DNA from: Candidatus Omnitrophota bacterium
Lineage (GTDB): Bacteria > Omnitrophota > Gorgyraeia > JAZDFF01
Direction of reading: 5' to 3'
Assembly: GCA_043808095.1 (NCBI GenBank)
Contig: JAZDFF010000011.1
Location: 48,030 to 112,029 of the forward strand
DNA length: 64,000 nt
This document shows positions 11,390 through 48,304 of this stretch, piece by piece (within the stretch, counting starts at the first letter, position 1; each line of letters opens with the position of its first letter). The notes beneath the pieces were generated by a model. It saw only the letters and a program-made list of their open reading frames with translations, ran no database searches and was not told the DNA's origin. The translations under genes were made by a program, and so were the position numbers.

Positions 11390-11640
11390 AATTTGATCCC
11401 GACGTATCGTCGGGGTAAGTGGTTCAACTTCGCTCTGGTTCGACTTTGCTCTGGTTCGACTTTGCTCACCATTCGCCCTGAGCAAGCTCGCCAGAGGCGA
11501 GCGCGTCGAAGGGCTCACCATCCTTCGAATGCATTCGACTACACTCAACATTCGTCCTGAGCTTGTCGAAGGACGAACCATCCTGAGCGCAGTCGAAGGA
11601 TTCGGCCTAATCCCGACGTATCGTCGGGATGGCCTCACTT
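11390..11640. repeat. composite MITE-like element bounded by identical 20-nt palindromes (ATCCCGACGTATCGTCGGG), carrying GTCGAAGG/CCTGAGC repeats
   Basis: The terminal hairpins lie at 11396-11415 and 11610-11630. The interior has duplicated ctctggttcgactttgct and an ~75-nt block whose reverse complement recurs at 31880-31955. The right terminal hairpin encodes the last 7 aa of FprA. Confidence 0.65.
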
Positions 11641-39818: not shown

Positions 39819-39822
39819 ATTT

Positions 39823-39885
39823 TCTATGATACTCCAAACAAAAACCAAATTCAAGCCAGGAAAATATAGGAGTGAATTTATCCTG
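39823..39885. repeat. direct repeat, left copy, flanking the ICMT cassette
   Basis: tatgatactccaaacaaaaaccaaattcaagccaggaaaatataggagtgaattta is ~80-85% identical to 40768-40830. Confidence 0.65.
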
Positions 39886-39990
39886 AGCCCTTCGGCAAGC
39901 TCAGGGTAAACTGAGTCGAGGTATTTCGCAACTGGCTATGCTCGAAAGAGGCTGAAAAACTATACAAAGAAATACTTAATATCTAATGAA
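39886..39990. repeat. MITE-family fragment (CCTGAGCCCTTCGGCAAGCTCAGGGTAAACTGAGTCGAGG)
   Basis: Its reverse complement occurs at 43172-43215. Confidence 0.65.
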
Positions 39991-39991
39991 G

Positions 39992-40738
39992 TCATCTACC
40001 GGGAACATTTAGCAGCTTTGTTTTCTTCTTTAATATAAAACATGTCAGGTATATGATTAAACCAACTATGAAAAAATATATCCAAGACCTGTGAACTTCA
40101 AATTTGCCATAAAGCAAAAAGTTAGTGCTTACTTCTAAGAAAAAGAAAACAGCTACGATTGAAAAAAAAGTAGAAAATTCTCTTCTGATTACTGTTTTTG
40201 AGGAAAAGGGTAAGTCCGGCTTCTTCCAGTTACTAAAATTGGGAATAAGGACAGGGGTTTTATTTGCCCATTCAATAAACAAAACCCCAAATTTCTTTCT
40301 TAAGAACTCCTCCTCGGAAAAGATTATCCTTTCATAATACAGCCAAAATCCAACCCATACCACTAAAGCGAACCACCATACCTGAATAAACAATGTAATT
40401 CCAAAAACTATAATAAAATTACCCAGATAAATAGGATTTCTTGTGATGGAATACATTCCAGTCGTATTTAAACTTTCCGCTAATTGGGATTTTGTGTTTC
40501 TGCCTGATGTCCCCCTTGGGACATACCCAACTGTAAGACAACGGATACCTAATCCTAAAAACGATATAAAAATCGATAAAGTTTCCCAGCAATCTGCAGC
40601 CCTGTCTCCAAAAATATACTCAAGCACTCTAGCATGCCGCAAGGCAACAATAAATATCGGAATTACCAATAAGGGTAGGTAACTCCTCCATCTGAATAAC
40701 CAATTTCCCTGTTTTTCTATATCTTCTCTTAAGGCCAT
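39992..40738 (-). CDS. isoprenylcysteine carboxyl methyltransferase / phospholipid methyltransferase-family membrane protein
   Basis: 248 aa with 5-6 TM helices and the C-terminal motif ITRNPIYLGNF...E. Confidence 0.6.
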   Translation of the reverse strand: MALREDIEKQGNWLFRWRSYLPLLVIPIFIVALRHARVLEYIFGDRAADCWETLSIFISFLGLGIRCLTVGYVPRGTSGRNTKSQLAESLNTTGMYSITRNPIYLGNFIIVFGITLFIQVWWFALVVWVGFWLYYERIIFSEEEFLRKKFGVLFIEWANKTPVLIPNFSNWKKPDLPFSSKTVIRREFSTFFSIVAVFFFLEVSTNFLLYGKFEVHRSWIYFFIVGLIIYLTCFILKKKTKLLNVPGR

Positions 40739-40767
40739 TCTTATCCTATTCTAAATTATGAGTTAAG

Positions 40768-40830
40768 TTTATTATATCCCAGGCAAAAACTAAATTCAAG
40801 CCCGGAAAATATTAGGTGTGAATTCATTAG
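40768..40830. repeat. direct repeat, right copy
   Basis: tatatcccaggcaaaaactaaattcaagcccggaaaatattaggtgtgaattcatt. On the minus strand it continues into a relic of the permease N-terminus, LNLVFAWDII. Confidence 0.65.
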
Positions 40831-40855
40831 GTAGGCGTCTGCGCAATGCCAAAAA

Positions 40856-41344
40856 TCAGCGCGCTGCGGGGTCTTTTATCCTGCGGATAAACTCTAATAC
40901 CAGCCAGAGATTATTCTCTTCCTCAGAAAGGCTGCCTGCCTGCTTCTTCTCTAAGATTTCTTTCTGCCTTTCGGGTGAAAGTTCCCTTCTAATAAACTCC
41001 TCTAACATAGCGACAATTGCTTTTTCTTCTTTGCCTTCGAAAGAAAGCGTCTCAGCACCGGATGCCTCAGGATGAACCGCCCCGACATAAACCTGATGTT
41101 TTTTAACGGACAACCTGGCGTCAAGGCAAAACTGGAATGTATTTTCTTCTCTATCTTTTATCACGATACCAATGGTGCCGCCGTCGCGATAATATAAGGC
41201 CTGTTCAAGTTTAAGAGGCCAATGCAAAACAACTGTCCTGCCTGAAAGTGGGATTTCTACTGTTTCCTCCTCCCCGGCCTGGCCTGTGCCTGTAAAGATT
41301 ACCACCGCCAAGATAATCGCAAAGAATATGGCTATTTTCTTCAT
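40856..41344 (-). CDS. secreted hypothetical protein
   Basis: 162 aa with a signal peptide, MKKIAIFFAIILAVVIFTGTGQA. Confidence 0.4.
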   Translation of the reverse strand: MKKIAIFFAIILAVVIFTGTGQAGEEETVEIPLSGRTVVLHWPLKLEQALYYRDGGTIGIVIKDREENTFQFCLDARLSVKKHQVYVGAVHPEASGAETLSFEGKEEKAIVAMLEEFIRRELSPERQKEILEKKQAGSLSEEENNLWLVLEFIRRIKDPAAR

Positions 41345-41518
41345 ATATTTATTCTAAAAACCCTCTGCAATATATTCTATTACAGGGGGTTAAGAAGTAA
41401 GGATCCGCTTTGGGACGCAACTGGAGCATGTCGGAGGAAGCGGAGAAATTATACCAGGAACTCATCCCGGTTATTTAAACTACTCCTTTGGTCCGGGACG
41501 GGATACTTATTTCCGTAA

Positions 41519-41971: not shown

Positions 41972-42130
41972 AGGCCCTCCTTGTTAATTATCTAATTATA
42001 TCACTTCGATTTAAAAATAGTAAGATAAAAAAACCCTCTGTAGTATAAATTGTCACAGAGGGTAAAAAAGACAAAATTAGGTATGTGTCCCCAGAATTGG
42101 AGAAATTGATTTATATTCCTTTTTAGGTGT

Positions 42131-42535
42131 TCAGTCTTTCTTTATATCCGCTTTTTTAAAAACGTTCTTTACAAAATCCAAATATTCACGGCTATCCTTT
42201 TCACCCACAAAGAATCCGCCGTCATAAAGATTAAAATTGCGTTCCTGTCTCATCTTGTTGCCAAGCACGATGATATCTTCATCTTTCAGTATATAGCTCA
42301 GTTTCTCCATGATCTTAACATGGTGGCCGGTTGTACTTCTTATTTTATGCCCCTTCTTGGCAATTAAAACTATGCCTAATTTTATGAGGGCATCGTAACT
42401 GAATTTGAAAATAACATCCGGAATATCCGATGACTCGGCTATTTGGAGATCATGCAAAGCAGATTTTGAGAATTGCGCAATTTGCTCTTGTTTAAATGGC
42501 AGTTTTTGAAAGTATTGCCTTTCAAAATTAATCAT
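42131..42535 (-). CDS. HEPN-domain protein (toxin of a HEPN/MNT pair)
   Basis: 134 aa. An Rx4HH motif (IRSTTGHH) sits in a helical domain. Confidence 0.55.
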   Translation of the reverse strand: MINFERQYFQKLPFKQEQIAQFSKSALHDLQIAESSDIPDVIFKFSYDALIKLGIVLIAKKGHKIRSTTGHHVKIMEKLSYILKDEDIIVLGNKMRQERNFNLYDGGFFVGEKDSREYLDFVKNVFKKADIKKD

Positions 42536-43110
42536 GGGAGCCTTATAGTCTTGGTTTTAAAGATACGGCTTATAAAAGGGTCTTTAGCCTTTTTCTTTGC
42601 GGAAAAATCTTGCGGGCTTAAATTCGTTATATTGAATTCTCTGCCTGTATCCTTCTGCAATTCAGCGATAAGCCTCTGTAAACCCAGAACAGAGTGCGAA
42701 CCAATAGCCAGAATGTCAATATCGCTTGATGAATCCATTTTATTGGTTGCGTATGAGCCGAATATATATGCCTCTTTAATCCCCTTGATATTCCCAAATA
42801 TATCTTTAAGCCTTTTCTCTATGCCGTATGTCTTAAGGAAAATCTGGCGGTAATGCTCTAAAATCGGGTTATCCTTGGCAAGAAAGAAATACCTTTCTTT
42901 CCCGCGGAATTCGCTCTTTAAAAGACCGTTTTTTTCGAATTCCTTAAGCTTGGCCTCGGTGTTTTTGGGATCTAACTCTAAAATCCTTGCCAGTTCGTTA
43001 ATGTATGCTTGAGCATCCGAATTAAGAAAAAAGTAATCCAGCAGTTTTATGGCCACCTTTGAACGTAGGGATATCATCTTTTCACCATGTTTATGGTAAT
43101 ATGTTACCAT
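42532..43110 (-). CDS. minimal nucleotidyltransferase (MNT) with an N-terminal wHTH; antitoxin partner
   Basis: GSYATN...DSSSDIDIL is a GS...DxD nucleotidyltransferase motif. The gene ends in ATGA, overlapping the HEPN gene. Confidence 0.6.
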   Translation of the reverse strand: MVTYYHKHGEKMISLRSKVAIKLLDYFFLNSDAQAYINELARILELDPKNTEAKLKEFEKNGLLKSEFRGKERYFFLAKDNPILEHYRQIFLKTYGIEKRLKDIFGNIKGIKEAYIFGSYATNKMDSSSDIDILAIGSHSVLGLQRLIAELQKDTGREFNITNLSPQDFSAKKKAKDPFISRIFKTKTIRLP

Positions 43111-43139: not shown

Positions 43140-43430
43140 GGGGGTGGGCAGGCGCAACAAAGTATCCTTCGACTCAGTTTACCCTGAGCTTGCCGAAGGG
43201 CTCAGGGTGGATTCTCCGCGCCCAAATGGTTAGTCTATCGAACCATAAATGACAACGCCCTTCGCTATCCAAGGCTTACTTTACCACATAATAAAATGGT
43301 GAGCAAGCCCTGAACGAAATGAAGGGCGCGTCGAACCACTCCCCTTCGTGGACGACCTTCGCAACACTTCGACAAGCTCAGTGCAAGCTTTTTTGGAGGA
43401 ATTTAAGAGCTATTGTTTAAGTCAGGAAGC
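43140..43430. repeat. MITE-family repeat block (GTCGAAGG / CCCTGAGC...GCTCAGGG hairpins)
   Basis: tccttcgactcagtttaccctgagcttgccgaagggctcaggg ... ggtgagcaagccctgaacgaaatgaagggcgcgtcgaacc. Confidence 0.65.
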
Positions 43431-43437
43431 AGAGAGA

Positions 43438-44517
43438 TTACTTGAAGAAATGTCTGGTTCTCAAGCATACTCTCACTAACATTAACATAACTGGCACTTC
43501 AATCAGCACTCCAACAACAGTTGCAAGAGATGCCCCAGAAGATAACCCAAAAAGCATCGCTGATGTGGCAATGGCAACTTCAAAGTGATTACTCGCCCCT
43601 ATCAATGCCGAAGGAGCTGCATCCACGTATGGTAATTTTAACCATTTTGCTAATCCGTATGTTAAGGCAAAAATTAAACAAGTCTGAATAAAAAGTGGTA
43701 TTGCTATTAAAAATATCACCTGAGGTTGTTTTATAATCAATCCCCCCTTAAACGAAAATAAAAGGATAAGCGTAACAAGTAACGCCCCTATAGAGACTGG
43801 CGTTAAATAATGAAGAAATTTTTCTTCAAACCACTTCAACCCTTTTTTGGCAATTATATATTTTCTAGAATGATACCCTAAGAAAAGCGGCAAACCCACA
43901 TAGATAATGACTGATAATACTATTGTCTGCCAGGGAATAGGCATTTTGTTCACCCCTAAAAGCCACCCTCCTAAAGGCGCATAAAGAAATAACATTGTAA
44001 GTGAGTTTATCGCTACCATAACAAGAGTATGCCCATCGTTACCTCTTGCTAAATGACCCCAAACAAGAACCATAGCTGTGCAAGGAGCAATCCCGAGCAA
44101 TATACAGCCAGCAATATAAGAACGGAAAAGCTCAACCTGAGCACCGCCCTTAATGATCTCAACGCCAGGAAGCCAACCCTTAAAGACAAAGCCAAGAAAA
44201 AAAGTGGCAATAGCGAGCATGGTAAAAGGCTTGATACACCAGTTTACAAACAAAGTAAGCAATACTGGCTTAGGCGTCTTTCCCGCTTTAACAACCTCGG
44301 CAAAATCAATCTTCACCATAATCGGATACATCATAAAGAATAGACATATCGCAATGGGAATGGATACTTGATATATCGAAAATTGATCAAGCGTAACAGC
44401 CATCTGAGGAAATAGCTTACCAAGAATTATGCCAAGTCCGATGCAAAGGACTACCCATCCGGTGAGATATTTTTCAAAAAAACCTAATTTTCGTTCTTCG
44501 TAGATAACTCGCTCCAT
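43438..44517 (-). CDS. acr3: arsenite efflux permease, ACR3 family
   Basis: 359 aa with a BASS/ACR3 fold. The ACR3-typical proline-rich TM pattern is present. Confidence 0.8.
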
Positions 44518-44529
44518 AGATTTTTCCTT

Positions 44530-45225
44530 CTACATAAAATTGGTAATGATATAACCCCAGATAAAATAAATTCCGACAAGTATAAAGATAATACCAGTAA
44601 TCTTTCTCGTACATAATTCAAGCGCCGCTACTTTACGGAACCATTTTGAAAAGGACGTTACGCCTATTGTAATACCCAATGCAAATACCACTACAGGAAT
44701 ACCTGTGCCTATACCGTAAAAGAAAGGCAAAATAATTCCATAACTGCTTTTTAACGCGAGAGGAATTAAGCTGCCAAAAAATAATGCCGCAGCGATTGGA
44801 CAGAAAGATAGGGCAAATATTGCTCCGAGCGTAAAAGAACCTTTTATTCCTGATTCGACTAATGCAGTTTGCTTCTGTTGCGAAACTGAGAAAATCGGAA
44901 TGTCCATCTTTATTATATCTAATAGAAACAACCCAACTATCAGTAAAACAGGGCCTAATATTTTGTTGATATATTTCTGCAAGAAATTGGCTGTTGCGGG
45001 AACGCTTGCTAATGAAGTTATGATAACTACCCCTAATACAGCATAAGTAAGCATACGTCCAACGGTATAAGCAATGCTAGATTGCAACACGAGCCTGGGG
45101 TGGCTTATTTTTTTTGATAAGAACGATATAGCTGCTATATTTGTAGCAAGAGGACACGGGCTTATAGAAGTAAGAATACCGAACCATAATGCAAAGACAA
45201 AAGGTAGTATAATCTGAATCATCAC
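44530..45225 (-). CDS. CcdA/DsbD-type transmembrane thiol-disulfide transporter
   Basis: 231 aa. Two TM cysteines are present (SPCPL and SFCPIAA). Confidence 0.7.
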   Translation of the reverse strand: MMIQIILPFVFALWFGILTSISPCPLATNIAAISFLSKKISHPRLVLQSSIAYTVGRMLTYAVLGVVIITSLASVPATANFLQKYINKILGPVLLIVGLFLLDIIKMDIPIFSVSQQKQTALVESGIKGSFTLGAIFALSFCPIAAALFFGSLIPLALKSSYGIILPFFYGIGTGIPVVVFALGITIGVTSFSKWFRKVAALELCTRKITGIIFILVGIYFIWGYIITNFM

Positions 45226-45641
45226 TGATTATCCTTTAAGTAATTATTGATTTCGGTTGTCACGTAGTTAAAGAATTTCCTTTTATCTCTCACATATTCC
45301 CATATCTTCGTAAGATTCTTATGCCGTATTTCTTTACCATTTTCTACGCGTGAGATTATAAGTGATTTCGTATAAAGTTGGTAATCATTCACGAAGTGCT
45401 CATTGCCTTTTTCTTCAACGTTTACTGTCTTAACGACAAGTAAGCCGTTAGCCAATTCATTCTTAAAATTCTCCTCAATTGCCTCCTTTGTATACTGTTC
45501 CATCTTATGACAAGTTGGACAACGGACATTACCGTGAAAATAATAAGCAATTATCTTAGCATCAGCACTAAACGCCAATGTTGCGCCTATTGCTAACACT
45601 ACCGTTAAAATGATTGGTGCGAGAAAACGCTTTATAACCAT
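45222..45641 (-). CDS. periplasmic thioredoxin-like CxxC protein
   Basis: A signal peptide precedes an RCPTCH motif. It overlaps ccdA. Confidence 0.5.
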   Translation of the reverse strand: MVIKRFLAPIILTVVLAIGATLAFSADAKIIAYYFHGNVRCPTCHKMEQYTKEAIEENFKNELANGLLVVKTVNVEEKGNEHFVNDYQLYTKSLIISRVENGKEIRHKNLTKIWEYVRDKRKFFNYVTTEINNYLKDNQ

Positions 45642-45859
45642 TTTCTAATCTCCTCTGCTGATAAAGTTTTTCCTGATGATTTGACTTTACCGTCTATAAC
45701 AAGAGCGGGCGTCATCATAACTCCGTATTCTATAATTTTATCCATATCCTCAACTTTAATAACCTCTGCCTGAACACCTTTTTCTTCAACCGCTTTCTTT
45801 GCGTTTTCATAAAGCATTTTACATTTAGGACAACCCATCCCGAGAATTTCGATTTTCAT
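45632..45859 (-). CDS. redox-active disulfide protein 2 (small thioredoxin-family protein)
   Basis: 75 aa, MKIEILGMGCPKCK..., with a CPKC active site. Confidence 0.75.
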   Translation of the reverse strand: MKIEILGMGCPKCKMLYENAKKAVEEKGVQAEVIKVEDMDKIIEYGVMMTPALVIDGKVKSSGKTLSAEEIRKWL

Positions 45860-45874
45860 TTTGCCTCCGTTATT

Positions 45875-46657
45875 TTATCTTTTTACGGCAGAAACTTTTA
45901 TGCTTGCTACTGCATCTTGAGCACCCTCAAGATTATCAAACATGGCATCCACCGGATAACTCGATTCGCTGATCACTTTAACATCCTTAAAACCAGCCAT
46001 TGCTATGAATTTTAGATATTCGTCTTTTTTAATCGCGCCGGCAAGGCAACCCACATATGCCTCAACCGATTCTTTGATAGCATCCGATAATTCCTTAACC
46101 AACACCAGATCCGAAACCATCAACCTGCCACCGGGCTTCAATACCCTAAAAGCTTCCTTAAATACCTTATTTTTATCCGGAGAGAGGTTAATAACGCAGT
46201 TTGATATGATCACATCGACCGAGCTATTATCAACCGGCAACTTTTCGATTTCGCCAAGCCTGAATTCTACATTCGTATAGCTGTCTTTTTTGGCATTCGC
46301 TTGTGCTTTTTCAATCATCTCCGGCGTCATATCAACGCCAATGACACGGCCGGCTTTCCCAACTTTAGGAGAAGCCAGAAATACATCAAACCCTGCACCG
46401 CTGCCCAAATCAAGCACCACATCGCCTTCTTTTAAGGATGCGAGTGCTACCGGATTGCCACAACCAAACCCCAGATTCGCGCCTTCAGGAACAGCATTCA
46501 TTTCCACATCGCTATATCCTACCGTCTTACTTATAGTTTTAGCTTGGCTTGTGCCGCTACAACAAGAACTTGAAGAACAACATGAAGTAGTCTGCTTCAC
46601 TGCTTTTGCGTAACCTTCCCTGACAATTTTCTTGATTTCATCTGCTTTTCCTTTCAT
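45875..46657 (-). CDS. arsM: arsenite S-adenosylmethionine methyltransferase
   Basis: SAM-MTase (VLDLGSGAG) with conserved Cys residues in FGCGNP and SNCVINL, plus a Cys-rich N-terminus. Confidence 0.8.
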   Translation of the reverse strand: MKGKADEIKKIVREGYAKAVKQTTSCCSSSSCCSGTSQAKTISKTVGYSDVEMNAVPEGANLGFGCGNPVALASLKEGDVVLDLGSGAGFDVFLASPKVGKAGRVIGVDMTPEMIEKAQANAKKDSYTNVEFRLGEIEKLPVDNSSVDVIISNCVINLSPDKNKVFKEAFRVLKPGGRLMVSDLVLVKELSDAIKESVEAYVGCLAGAIKKDEYLKFIAMAGFKDVKVISESSYPVDAMFDNLEGAQDAVASIKVSAVKR

Positions 46658-46658
46658 C

Positions 46659-46823
46659 CTATATCCTTTCCCGCTTCATCTTTGAGGCGTTTTCCCTGTT
46701 GATTTGTTTCTTTATCACTTCCTTAACGAAATCCAACGCCCCGTCTTTATCATGATCGATCACAATTTTCTCTACTTTGAGCAAATCATCATCCGTAAGA
46801 TTAATAATCTTTTTATTCGTCAT
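46659..46823 (-). CDS. 54-aa hypothetical protein (below the ORF-track cut-off)
   Basis: MTNKKIINLTDDDLLKVEKIVIDHDKDGALDFVKEVIKKQINRENASKMKRERI*. It is tightly packed between the permease and arsM. Confidence 0.4.
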   Translation of the reverse strand: MTNKKIINLTDDDLLKVEKIVIDHDKDGALDFVKEVIKKQINRENASKMKRERI

Positions 46824-46829
46824 TCGTCC

Positions 46830-48002
46830 CTACTTTACGATAAATCCAAAAATCATTCCGCATATAGTTGCCATAACAACAACAAGACCAGCATATACGA
46901 TTGTTTTCTTGGTACCAATAATACCTCGTATAACCAACATGCTGGGTAAACTTAAAGCGGGCCCGGCCAAAAGAAGCGCCAAAGCAGGCCCCTTGCCCAT
47001 ACTTGAGCCGATCAAACCCTGTAAAATTGGCACTTCGGTAAGTGTAGCAAAATACATAAAAGCGGCAACTATCGAAGAAAAGAAATTTGCGCGCAGGGAA
47101 TTACCGCCCACTAGCATTTCAACAAAACTTGAAGGAATAACTCCCTCATGCCCAACTCTACCCAGTAAAAATCCCGAAATGAGCACCCCTCCCAGCAAGA
47201 GAGGAAGAATTTGCAAAGCGAAACCCCATGTTGCAGATGTCCATTCCTTTAATTCTTCTTTCTTGAACCATTTGAAAATCATAAGGGCGAGGCTAAAAAG
47301 AGAAAAACCGGCAATCCACCATTTATATTGGTAAATTAATGACCATATTCCCTGATCGCCCTCAAGAGATTTGCCCCAGTTGGCAAAAACGAGAAAAGCA
47401 ACCATAGAAGCAAAGTACAGAATTGTCTTGCCTAAAGAGCGATTTTCTTTTATCTCGCCTATGGCAAAATCGCCGTTTGCATGGCGCTGTCTTTCTTCTT
47501 TTAAGAATATCAAGTGCATTAATAAGCCGATAACGACGCTAAATAGAACTGCACCTATGGCCCTTGCTAATCCAAGTTGCCAACCAAGGATGCGGGCGGT
47601 AAGAATTATTGCAAGGACATTGATTGCCGGGCCTGAATATAAAAAAGCAATCGCTGGTCCTAAGCCAGCGCCCCTTTTATATATGCCAGCAAAAAGCGGT
47701 AAAACTGTACAAGAACATACTGCAAGGATTGCTCCTGAAACAGAGGCAACGCTGTAAGAAAGGAATTTGTTTGCCTTTACCCCGAAATATTTCATCACCG
47801 AGGCCTGGCTGACAAAAACAGAAATTGCGCCGGCTATAAAGAAAGCTGGCACAAGACACAAAAGCACATGTTCCCGGGCATACCACTTTACCAATGCCAA
47901 AGATTCAAAGATTGGGTTTCTAAAAGGCAAAAGTTCTACCGGCAGAAAGTAACATCCTAAGAATACAGCCAGTATTAAGAAAAACCTATTCTTCTCTTTC
48001 AT
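46830..48002 (-). CDS. COG0701/DUF318 predicted permease
   Basis: 390 aa, multi-TM. It overlaps the DUF134 gene by 4 nt. Confidence 0.65.
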   Translation of the reverse strand: MKEKNRFFLILAVFLGCYFLPVELLPFRNPIFESLALVKWYAREHVLLCLVPAFFIAGAISVFVSQASVMKYFGVKANKFLSYSVASVSGAILAVCSCTVLPLFAGIYKRGAGLGPAIAFLYSGPAINVLAIILTARILGWQLGLARAIGAVLFSVVIGLLMHLIFLKEERQRHANGDFAIGEIKENRSLGKTILYFASMVAFLVFANWGKSLEGDQGIWSLIYQYKWWIAGFSLFSLALMIFKWFKKEELKEWTSATWGFALQILPLLLGGVLISGFLLGRVGHEGVIPSSFVEMLVGGNSLRANFFSSIVAAFMYFATLTEVPILQGLIGSSMGKGPALALLLAGPALSLPSMLVIRGIIGTKKTIVYAGLVVVMATICGMIFGFIVK

Positions 48003-48304
48003 TTCTTTCCTCGCATAATAATCTTACAGCAACCGCCTTCGATTCTTATTGCCTTAACATTTACTAAAGCATCAGCTATTTTTTTATGAGCTGAATCAAC
48101 GATTCTCGAAATAGTAGAACGATGGACTTTCATTTTTTTAGCAATTTTTTCTTGGTCTAACCCTTCTAAATCGCTAAGTCTTATAGACTCAAACTCATCA
48201 ATGGTCAAAATAACCCCTTTTAATTTATTTAATGGTTTGCATTGTGGACGGAAACACCTTTCTCCTGGCTCACATTTAACCCATCTTATTTTTTTAGGTC
48301 TCAT
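47999..48304 (-). CDS. DUF134/UPF0251 predicted DNA-binding protein
   Basis: 101 aa. The pattern MRPKKIRWV...P...FRP...L..DE.E.IRL.D..GL matches DUF134. Confidence 0.6.
   Translation of the reverse strand: MRPKKIRWVKCEPGERCFRPQCKPLNKLKGVILTIDEFESIRLSDLEGLDQEKIAKKMKVHRSTISRIVDSAHKKIADALVNVKAIRIEGGCCKIIMRGKK

Follow-up and report, generated by a model that had tools for sequence, protein, structure and literature searches.

A direct repeat flanking a methyltransferase gene in a Candidatus Omnitrophota genome lies in the predicted promoter regions of two adjacent genes and is probably in part a local copy rather than an insertion scar

Introduction

The 64,000 nt stretch analysed here (the window; contig JAZDFF010000011.1, positions 48,030 to 112,029 of the forward strand, assembly GCA_043808095.1) comes from a Candidatus Omnitrophota bacterium. 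On its minus strand it carries a gene for a membrane methyltransferase (MT) of the PEMT/ICMT family, followed by a co-oriented gene for an ArsP_1/COG0701 permease, and the regions upstream of the two genes form a direct repeat. The original prediction, made from the letters of the DNA and its open reading frames (ORFs), had described the MT gene as a cassette that entered the 5′ region of the permease gene and duplicated its target there, or as a gene captured by duplication of the permease leader.

The MT, the permease and the 162 aa protein encoded next to the MT each matched an NCBI protein from one 114,257 bp contig at 100 % identity. By Pfam, the MT and the permease are clear members of their own families, each with hundreds of close orthologues. 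The MT scored 44.9 bits against Pfam PF04191 (PEMT; cut-off 25) and 22.8 bits against the ICMT model, slightly below the cut-off of 24, while the permease matched PF03773 (ArsP_1) with 256 bits over profile positions 2–294 of 294, a full-length match. The MT had 4809 homologues, the top 120 of which were 67–100 % identical, nearly all 248 aa long and in many cases named Omnitrophota or Omnitrophica; judged by these matches, the gene is conserved in Omnitrophota. The MT and the permease showed no functional link to each other.

A non-coding direct repeat upstream of both genes

The best local alignment of the two repeat copies (copy A upstream of the permease gene and copy B upstream of the MT gene; forward-strand coordinates in Table 1) spanned 58 columns, with 48 identical positions (83 %) and one 1 nt indel, at a start-to-start distance of 945. 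Repeat search, MAFFT and local alignment were concordant on this extent, and a repeat of about 60 bp, with copies some 945 bp apart and 80–85 % identity, had been placed almost exactly here by the original prediction. The alignment score was 36, compared with a mean of 8.5 (sd 1.5, maximum 24) for 3000 random pairs of 122 nt windows from the same 64 kb and a maximum of 15 in 2000 shuffles. A 21 nt core of the repeat occurred at two sites only in the window, where 0.01 matches are expected by chance, and no third copy was found by short-word BLAST of the window. The score and this uniqueness rule out chance or low complexity as the source of the repeat. An Rfam scan of 37.5–43.5 kb (E≤1) returned three sub-threshold chance matches, with zero on the repeats.

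The first codons of the permease gene had been thought to be part of the repeat, and the distal copy to encode a relic of the permease N-terminus. Neither claim held. Among the 120 best permease orthologues, 103 were 322 aa long, as was the NCBI call for the same protein, and comparison with these orthologues places the true start at ATG 39818, not at TTG 39854. The repeat, which ends 7 nt upstream of this ATG, therefore lies wholly outside the coding sequence (CDS), and the supposed relic peptide (LNLVFAWDII, against MNLVFVWSII) is conserved non-coding DNA translated in one frame.

Each copy carries a predicted sigma-70-type promoter on the strand of its gene and upstream of its start, with near-consensus hexamers and a spacing within 16–18 nt, which is positional evidence. 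Copy B reads TTGAAT-17-TATAAT (40799–40771; 10/12 consensus positions), 32 nt before the MT ATG, and copy A reads TTGAAT-17-TATCAT (39854–39826; 9/12), 7 nt before the permease ATG. The two predicted promoters lie in the same register of the repeat, and the similarity between the copies ends one base past the −10 hexamer. The MT leader, which lies outside the repeat, is identical to that of the MT locus L001 from the −10 hexamer to the ATG. The permease mRNA, with its ATG 7 nt past the −10 hexamer, may be leaderless or nearly so. No shared RNA structure of the two copies was found: longer folds differed, and short folds shared a weak AT hairpin that was no better than in shuffles.

Table 1. 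Coordinates of genes, repeat copies, promoter elements and related modules (window positions unless a related locus is named)
Feature	Position	Strand	Evidence or remark
Repeat copy A, permease promoter region	39825–39881	minus	alignment, promoter scan, L008 homology, module profile
Upstream half of copy A (U_A)	39847–39881	minus	
Promoter-core half of copy A (D_A)	39825–39846	minus	
Copy A −35 hexamer TTGAAT	39854–39849	minus	promoter scan
Copy A −10 hexamer TATCAT	39831–39826	minus	promoter scan
Repeat copy B, MT promoter region	40770–40827	minus	alignment, promoter scan, BLAST homology of MT loci
Upstream half of copy B (U_B)	40791–40827	minus	
Promoter-core half of copy B (D_B)	40770–40790	minus	
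Copy B −35 hexamer TTGAAT	40799–40794	minus	promoter scan
Copy B −10 hexamer TATAAT	40776–40771	minus	promoter scan
MT leader, 31 nt, Shine-Dalgarno AGGA	40739–40769	minus	outside repeat; conserved with MT orthologues
PEMT/ICMT-family membrane MT gene, 248 aa	39992–40738	minus	Pfam PEMT
ArsP_1/COG0701 permease gene, 322 aa	38850–39818	minus	Pfam ArsP_1; orthologue lengths; NCBI gene call
Canonical module before 162 aa gene (CCCCCTG...CAGAGGG + T-run)	41354–41393	minus	−17.9 kcal/mol, z −6.1
Canonical module before CBS-domain gene	42005–42063	minus	homologous to L006 permease module, 78 % over 69 nt
Modules, L001	5918–5973, 6894–6951, 5217–5272	minus	
Modules, L004	5923–5977, 6888–6946		
Modules, L006	1802–1854, 2436–2494, 3592–3648, 4919–4976		
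Modules, L008	3061–3108, 4372–4427, 4940–4996		
Module, L023	4940–4996		
Module, L026	3924–3975		
Module, L028	2752–2800		
38 nt GC-rich palindromic REP/MITE-like element (CCTGAGCCCTTCGGCAAGCTCAGGGTAAACTGAGTCGA)	39882–39919	plus	adjoins U_A; hairpin in minimum-free-energy fold
Second, identical inverted copy of 38 nt element	43169–43206	minus	between nucleotidyltransferase and ACR3 genes
3′ remnant (...VFRNWLCSKEAEKLYKEILNI*, last ~22 codons) of small gene convergent with MT	39921–39986	plus	cut off at REP-like element
ACR3-type (ACR3/SBF) transporter gene	44517–43438	minus	first in minus-strand 5′→3′ order
Nucleotidyltransferase (192 aa) and 134 aa partner genes	43110–42131	minus	
CBS-domain protein gene	41971–41519	minus	
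162 aa protein gene	40856–41344	minus	hydrophobic N-terminus, likely secreted (from sequence, no prediction tool)
163 aa protein gene	38837–38346	minus	hydrophobic N-terminus, likely secreted; last in minus-strand order

A family of hairpin and promoter modules

Related loci contain a dispersed, strongly conserved module of about 50 nt, AACCCTCTG-loop-CAGAGGGTTTTTGTTTGGGATAGAATAA, located 25–45 nt before the start codons of many unrelated genes. Its layout is AACCCTCTG-loop-CAGAGGG followed by TTTTTGTTTGGGATAGAATAA; the hairpin is stable and contains pairs that covary, and a T-run and a −10-like hexamer come after it. Four copies were identified in L006, three each in L008 and L001, two in L004 and two canonical copies in the window, where canonical modules are confined to 41.3–42.1 kb. 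RNAalifold gave a 13 bp consensus stem, four pairs of which showed compensatory changes, and single canonical hairpins had folding energies of −14 to −20 kcal/mol (z −3 to −6) and were followed by a U-run. In the canonical module the T-run is succeeded by TAGAAT or TATAAT, the 3′ arm of the stem supplies a −35-like TTGCAG and the T-tract lies in the spacer. Concerted evolution of the modules was not seen, as hairpin identity was 68 % within a locus and 71 % between loci.

Experiments in Acinetobacter have recently demonstrated terminators coupled to promoters, which are also reported from a range of bacteria; in that architecture the DNA of the stem supplies the −35 element, the T-tract occupies the spacer and the −10 element comes right after (Fletcher et al., bioRxiv 10.64898/2026.08.19.745784). 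The canonical modules of the relatives, and both of those in the window, have this same layout, with the stem-derived TTGCAG at 17 nt spacing. The module would therefore appear to be a natural example of the promoter-coupled terminator architecture from an uncultivated phylum. Both repeat copies resemble it in retaining the T-tract, the −10 element and the position of the −35 element but differ in having, instead of a strong stem-loop, a segment with a weak and non-significant hairpin.

The modules also explain why some permease orthologues had seemed to start further upstream. Two of them with over-long gene calls, P0125 (337 aa) and P0133 (336 aa), begin MLQRVFVWSIME and MLQRVSVGSIIE, which are translations of TTGCAGAGGGTTTTTGTTTGG..., the canonical module. 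The public calls start at the TTG of the module's TTGCAG, so that the terminator/promoter module is read as a false N-terminal extension (MLQRVFVWSIMEIT...). TTG 39854, ruled out as a permease start by orthologue lengths, thus gains nothing from the extension of these two proteins, which is translated module.

The two halves of the repeat probably have different histories

The repeat divides into an upstream half (U, about 36 nt), which ends in the −35 hexamer TTGAAT, and a promoter-core half (D, about 21 nt), which consists of a T-run followed by the −10 hexamer. The D halves are found with the same genes elsewhere. MT orthologues of 83–90 % identity were available in six contexts (L001/2, L003, L004/5, L022, L024/5 and L026/7) and permease orthologues of 80–83 % identity in five (L006/7, L008, L009, L023 and L028/9). 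In BLAST comparison, the homology that the MT locus shares with L001, L004 and L026 begins about 46–68 nt past the stop codon, spans the CDS, the leader and D_B, and ends at window position 40790/40791 in all three. D_B (GTTTTTGCCTGGGATATAATA) and the leader therefore belong to the MT gene. On the permease side, homology to L008 reaches 39846; D_A is GTTTTTGTTTGGAGTATCATA, and its counterparts are GTTTTTGTTTGAGATATCATA in L008 and GTTTTGTTTGGTATATTATA in L023.

By hand count, D_A and D_B are 76 % identical, compared with about 90 % for D_B and the D of L001 and about 86 % for D_A and the D of L008. Each D is thus closer to its orthologue than to its paralogue, as expected if it was inherited with its own gene. 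Both D halves have the T-run, the GG(G/A) and the −10 hexamer collinear with the module. An orthologous module stands before the MT gene in L001, L004 and L026, and before the permease gene in L006, L008 and L023. An nhmmer profile of the module matched the repeats over the D positions only (model positions 33/34 to 56/59, at 39823–39846 and 40765–40790); these short matches were weak, with E-values of 3–5.

The U halves tell another story. In the same six loci the canonical GC-rich hairpin CCCTCTG-loop-CAGAGGG stands directly upstream of D, whereas in the window U takes its place before both genes, as (G)ATAAATTCACTCCT-ATATTTTCCTGGCTTGAATTTG and (A)ATGAATTCACACCTAATATTTTCCGGGCTTGAATTTA. U_A and U_B are 86 % identical by hand count. 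A search of the window and of 18 related loci that tolerated mismatches did not find U elsewhere. Scans of the U core as a 20-of-21-nt exact pattern gave five matches among GTDB species representatives, all in unrelated taxa and with dissimilar flanks, and seven matches in JGI metagenome contigs, also with dissimilar flanks; both sets are attributable to chance. Being 86 % identical and seen nowhere else, the U pair represents a derived state that is shared by, and specific to, the two copies. By implication, either one U served as template for the other or both derive from a third copy that was not seen.

A stable stem-loop ahead of the T-run was absent from both copies, which folded with −7.5 and −7.7 kcal/mol (z about −1). 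What U retains is a weak AT-rich inverted repeat, AAATTCA/TGAATTT (about −7.5 kcal/mol, z about −1), and the weakness of this hairpin suggests that the repeat copies probably no longer terminate transcription and have lost that function.

Gene order among relatives

The MT and permease genes were neighbours only in the source genome; their adjacency was absent from the six distinct MT contexts and the five distinct permease contexts. The genes of this neighbourhood (dnaX, recR, ABC-F, AsmA, PagL, ACR3, MT and permease) are scrambled among the relatives, and the gene order of the window differs from that in every relative compared, so that synteny favours neither gene as the one that moved.

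Three comparisons locate the breakpoints. In L006 the ACR3 gene (86 % aa identity) and the permease gene (83 %) occur in the same order as in the window, with three unrelated small genes and no MT gene between them. As an empty site this locus is ambiguous: its intervening 3.6 kb is wholly different and U is absent. The closest database relatives have 83–90 % protein identity. The permease module of L006 matches the module of the CBS-domain gene in the window, with a breakpoint at 39822. In L004 the order is MT-AsmA-163 aa, the last protein being 55 % identical to its counterpart in the window, and relative to this locus it is the permease that looks like the extra gene. Compared with L001, the window has 565 bp of extra DNA (40791–41355), made up of the 162 aa gene and U_B, between the hairpin and the MT promoter core. 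L001 5925–5954 corresponds to window 41356–41385 at 100 % (the 30 nt hairpin) and L001 5949–6793 to window 40790–39946, so that in L001 the terminator hairpin abuts the MT promoter core.

The DNA between the repeat copies

The interval had been said to hold only the MT gene and a MITE (miniature inverted-repeat transposable element) fragment at 39886–39990. Besides the MT gene it does contain only about 105 nt, of which the repeat element covers just 39882–39919. This 38 nt element resembles the dispersed palindromes of the repetitive extragenic palindromic (REP) and MITE types in being a GC-rich palindrome with an identical second copy and with related sequences clustered at about 11.5, 31.9 and 43.4 kb (near 11499–11620, 31911 and 43367–43381). 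It differs from the direct repeat, which it merely abuts at copy A, and makes up about one-third of the supposed fragment. The inverted pair, 3.3 kb apart, brackets the MT, 162 aa, CBS-domain and nucleotidyltransferase/134 aa partner genes.

The remainder of the interval includes the 3′ remnant of a small gene. In full length this gene encodes 58 aa (L003 1797–1973), ends ...EFRNWCMTEDAEKLCKELLKVQ* and has no Pfam match; L001 retains a shorter remnant, broken at another point. As the remnant in the window is cut off at the REP-like element, a rearrangement breakpoint lies at this element, which adjoins U_A.

Neighbouring genes

Upstream of the repeat region, a thiol/metalloid-type gene cluster occupies 43438–48304 on the minus strand. 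It encodes a DUF134 putative regulator, a second ArsP_1 permease (390 aa), an S-adenosylmethionine (SAM) methyltransferase with a Cys-rich N-terminus, a Thioredoxin_3 protein, a 139 aa protein of unknown family, a DsbD_2 membrane protein and the ACR3/SBF transporter. The nucleotidyltransferase at 42131–43110 (minus strand) combines a Polbeta/NTP_transf_2 domain with an N-terminal helix-turn-helix, and its ORF overlaps that of the 134 aa partner, for which no Pfam match was found; the two are probably a toxin-antitoxin-like pair.

Among 1.8 billion cluster representatives, none matched the 162 aa protein at more than 41 % identity, and its 233 remote homologues were at best 38 % identical. The ATG of its gene lies about 11 nt past the terminator T-run, and a Shine-Dalgarno sequence is absent. 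Homologues of the 322 aa permease with 71–72 % identity are annotated in the Candidate Phyla Radiation (P0202, P0223, P0231 and P0236), in the lineages Nealsonbacteria, Zambryskibacteria, Gribaldobacteria and Moraniibacteriota, which suggests that this permease has been transferred across phyla.

Discussion

The repeat is real but biologically ordinary. It is best read as a promoter segment that was copied locally, in a region prone to rearrangement, and not as an insertion scar. The account that fits best, and that we regard as probable, is that its two copies are the promoter regions of the adjacent, co-oriented MT and permease genes, with D inherited with each gene and U copied locally. D would be the promoter half of the module of terminator hairpin and promoter that is placed before many genes in this Omnitrophota lineage, and U would have supplanted the canonical hairpin in both copies. 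Given its identity between the copies and its absence elsewhere, U most likely spread from one promoter to the other, over a distance of 945 bp. The route may have been gene conversion or non-reciprocal recombination that started from the prior similarity of the modules, or the copy may have been made during the rearrangement that joined the MT and permease genes. Each copy would drive its own gene, the MT transcript with its 31 nt Shine-Dalgarno leader and the permease transcript leaderless or nearly so. The leader duplication proposed in the original prediction survives in part, as the segment of about 36 nt that includes the −35 hexamer and is specific to the two promoters implies a local copy.

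Several observations weigh against this account. D is 21 nt long, so that the argument from orthologue versus paralogue identity hangs on two to three positions, and the continuous BLAST homology is the stronger evidence. The promoter scan found seven sites in the region compared with 7.1 in shuffles, which is no excess, and the promoter call therefore rests on position, register and conservation. A simple terminator scanner with strict criteria did not flag the canonical hairpins, which have stem mismatches and a −35 hexamer matching at 3/6 positions. The collections were scanned for U by exact match and the source genome was covered over the 64 kb window of a 114 kb contig, so further copies may exist in other parts of this genome or in diverged relatives. 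Finally, at 83–90 % protein identity the nearest relatives are too distant to polarise the order of events.

An unlikely but not negligible alternative is that the MT segment (or the permease segment) arrived together with a module and recombined with a module already in place, by way of the D-like sequence that both had (TTG...GTTTTTGYYTGG.ATAT.AT). A module copy would have been left on each side, and modules would be hot spots for the shuffling of single-gene units. Synteny breakpoints do fall at module boundaries (40790/41356 relative to L001, and 39822, where the L006 module matches the CBS module), and the hybrid structure, with U shared and D gene-specific, would follow from crossing over between U and D. 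Many neighbouring genes in L001, L004, L006 and L008 also bear modules, and their order is scrambled. However, both partners would already have had to carry the rare U, of which no third copy is known, and modules within one locus are no more alike than those of different loci. Breakpoints in intergenic promoter DNA are in any case expected, since such rearrangements survive selection.

Selection could instead have kept the two U segments similar if U were a shared operator, with a transcription factor bound to AAATTCA-N19-TGAATTT over the −35 hexamer and co-regulating the MT and permease genes. This is compatible with a copy origin of U and seems unlikely as the cause of the similarity. The arms of the inverted repeat, at the −35 position, are retained in both copies with one G/A change, and the nearby ACR3, DsbD_2, thioredoxin-like, SAM-methyltransferase, second ArsP_1 and DUF134-regulator genes would make co-regulation plausible; palindromic terminator stems can serve as transcription-factor sites, according to one preprint (bioRxiv 10.64898/2026.08.19.745784). 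Against this, the loop is conserved as much as the arms, so that nothing singles out half-sites, and no further U-bearing gene was found in the window. In the relatives, U lies upstream of neither gene, and the two genes are not neighbours and stand in unrelated contexts.

A model in which the MT gene was a cassette that entered the permease leader and the first part of the permease CDS, with some 60 bp duplicated and the distal copy decayed to a relic, is very improbable and largely refuted. It draws on the flanking of a single gene by direct repeats, on the L006 arrangement of ACR3 and permease genes in the same order and orientation but lacking the MT gene, and on the varying context of the MT unit. 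That unit (promoter core, leader, CDS and 3′ flank) does stand in a different neighbourhood in every relative, in six contexts, which is the part of the cassette description that can be kept, but the permease is equally context-variable. The repeat contains no permease codons, and the 3′ half of either copy has its orthologue before the corresponding gene of other genomes (for D_B and the leader, in L001, L004 and L026). D_B with the leader is therefore not a copy of permease DNA, and the 3′ halves were not made by one duplication event. L006, for its part, differs over the entire 3.6 kb from ACR3 to permease and offers no clean gap of MT size.

Comparison with known mobile systems leads to the same result. 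Target-site duplications of insertion sequences and transposons are typically about 2–15 bp long, are near-identical and abut the ends of the element. The present repeats likewise flank a gene-sized segment but are 58 bp long, are diverged to 83 % with one indel, and are each in part orthologous to the upstream region of a different gene. At their inner ends no terminal inverted repeats were found, the best pairing (39881–39940 with the reverse complement of 40710–40769) scoring 5 with a 7 nt match. Neither a transposase nor a recombinase was found between or beside the repeats; the only substantial ORF between them is the PEMT-family MT, and the surroundings encode the permease, probably secreted proteins, a CBS protein and the nucleotidyltransferase. 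Integron cassettes are typically promoterless and carry attC at the 3′ end. The present locus recalls these, and arrays of attC sites lacking an integrase (CALIN), in having a repeat of about 60 nt beside single genes and a gene content that varies among relatives, but its repeats lie 5′ of the genes and bear promoters. For attC core sites (RYYYAAC/GTTRRRY), copy A had none and copy B a single chance site outside the repeat, with weak hairpins (z about −1) and no significant palindrome. No integrase was found among the ORFs listed for 36–50 kb, sixteen of which were scanned against Pfam (ten at 36.2–44.5 kb and six at 44.5–48.3 kb). The G+C content of the MT gene (35.5 %, compared with 41 % for the window) did not mark it as foreign either, as a deficit of 5–7 points was also present in five of six orthologous MT genes relative to their own loci. 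Low G+C content was accordingly rejected as a sign of horizontal transfer of the MT gene and is a family trait, with L022 the one locus lacking the deficit.

Finally, that the similarity is mere background resemblance of AT-rich, low-complexity promoter DNA can hardly be true: the D half is indeed a family likeness common to many modules, but the alignment score exceeds that of every random genomic pair, U is missing from all other modules despite its identity between the copies, and typical module pairs are only 71 % (hairpin) and 52 % (D) identical.

If the copies are two promoter regions with a locally copied U, the value of the result is partly corrective: an apparent insertion scar with relic coding sequence resolves into a pair of promoters, and the artefact that gave the relic peptide also lies behind the over-long public gene calls for orthologous permeases (P0125 and P0133). 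A wider role of the modules, in a system by which Omnitrophota would shuffle genes independently of an integrase, with the modules as recombination substrates and the U pair as a fresh product, is improbable; if it were true, units of a module plus one gene would be exchanged between positions in the variable region near dnaX-recR. The conserved module family is more noteworthy than the repeat itself. Its modules could help to annotate transcription units in metagenome-assembled genomes of Omnitrophota and could also serve to test whether local rearrangement is favoured by modules.

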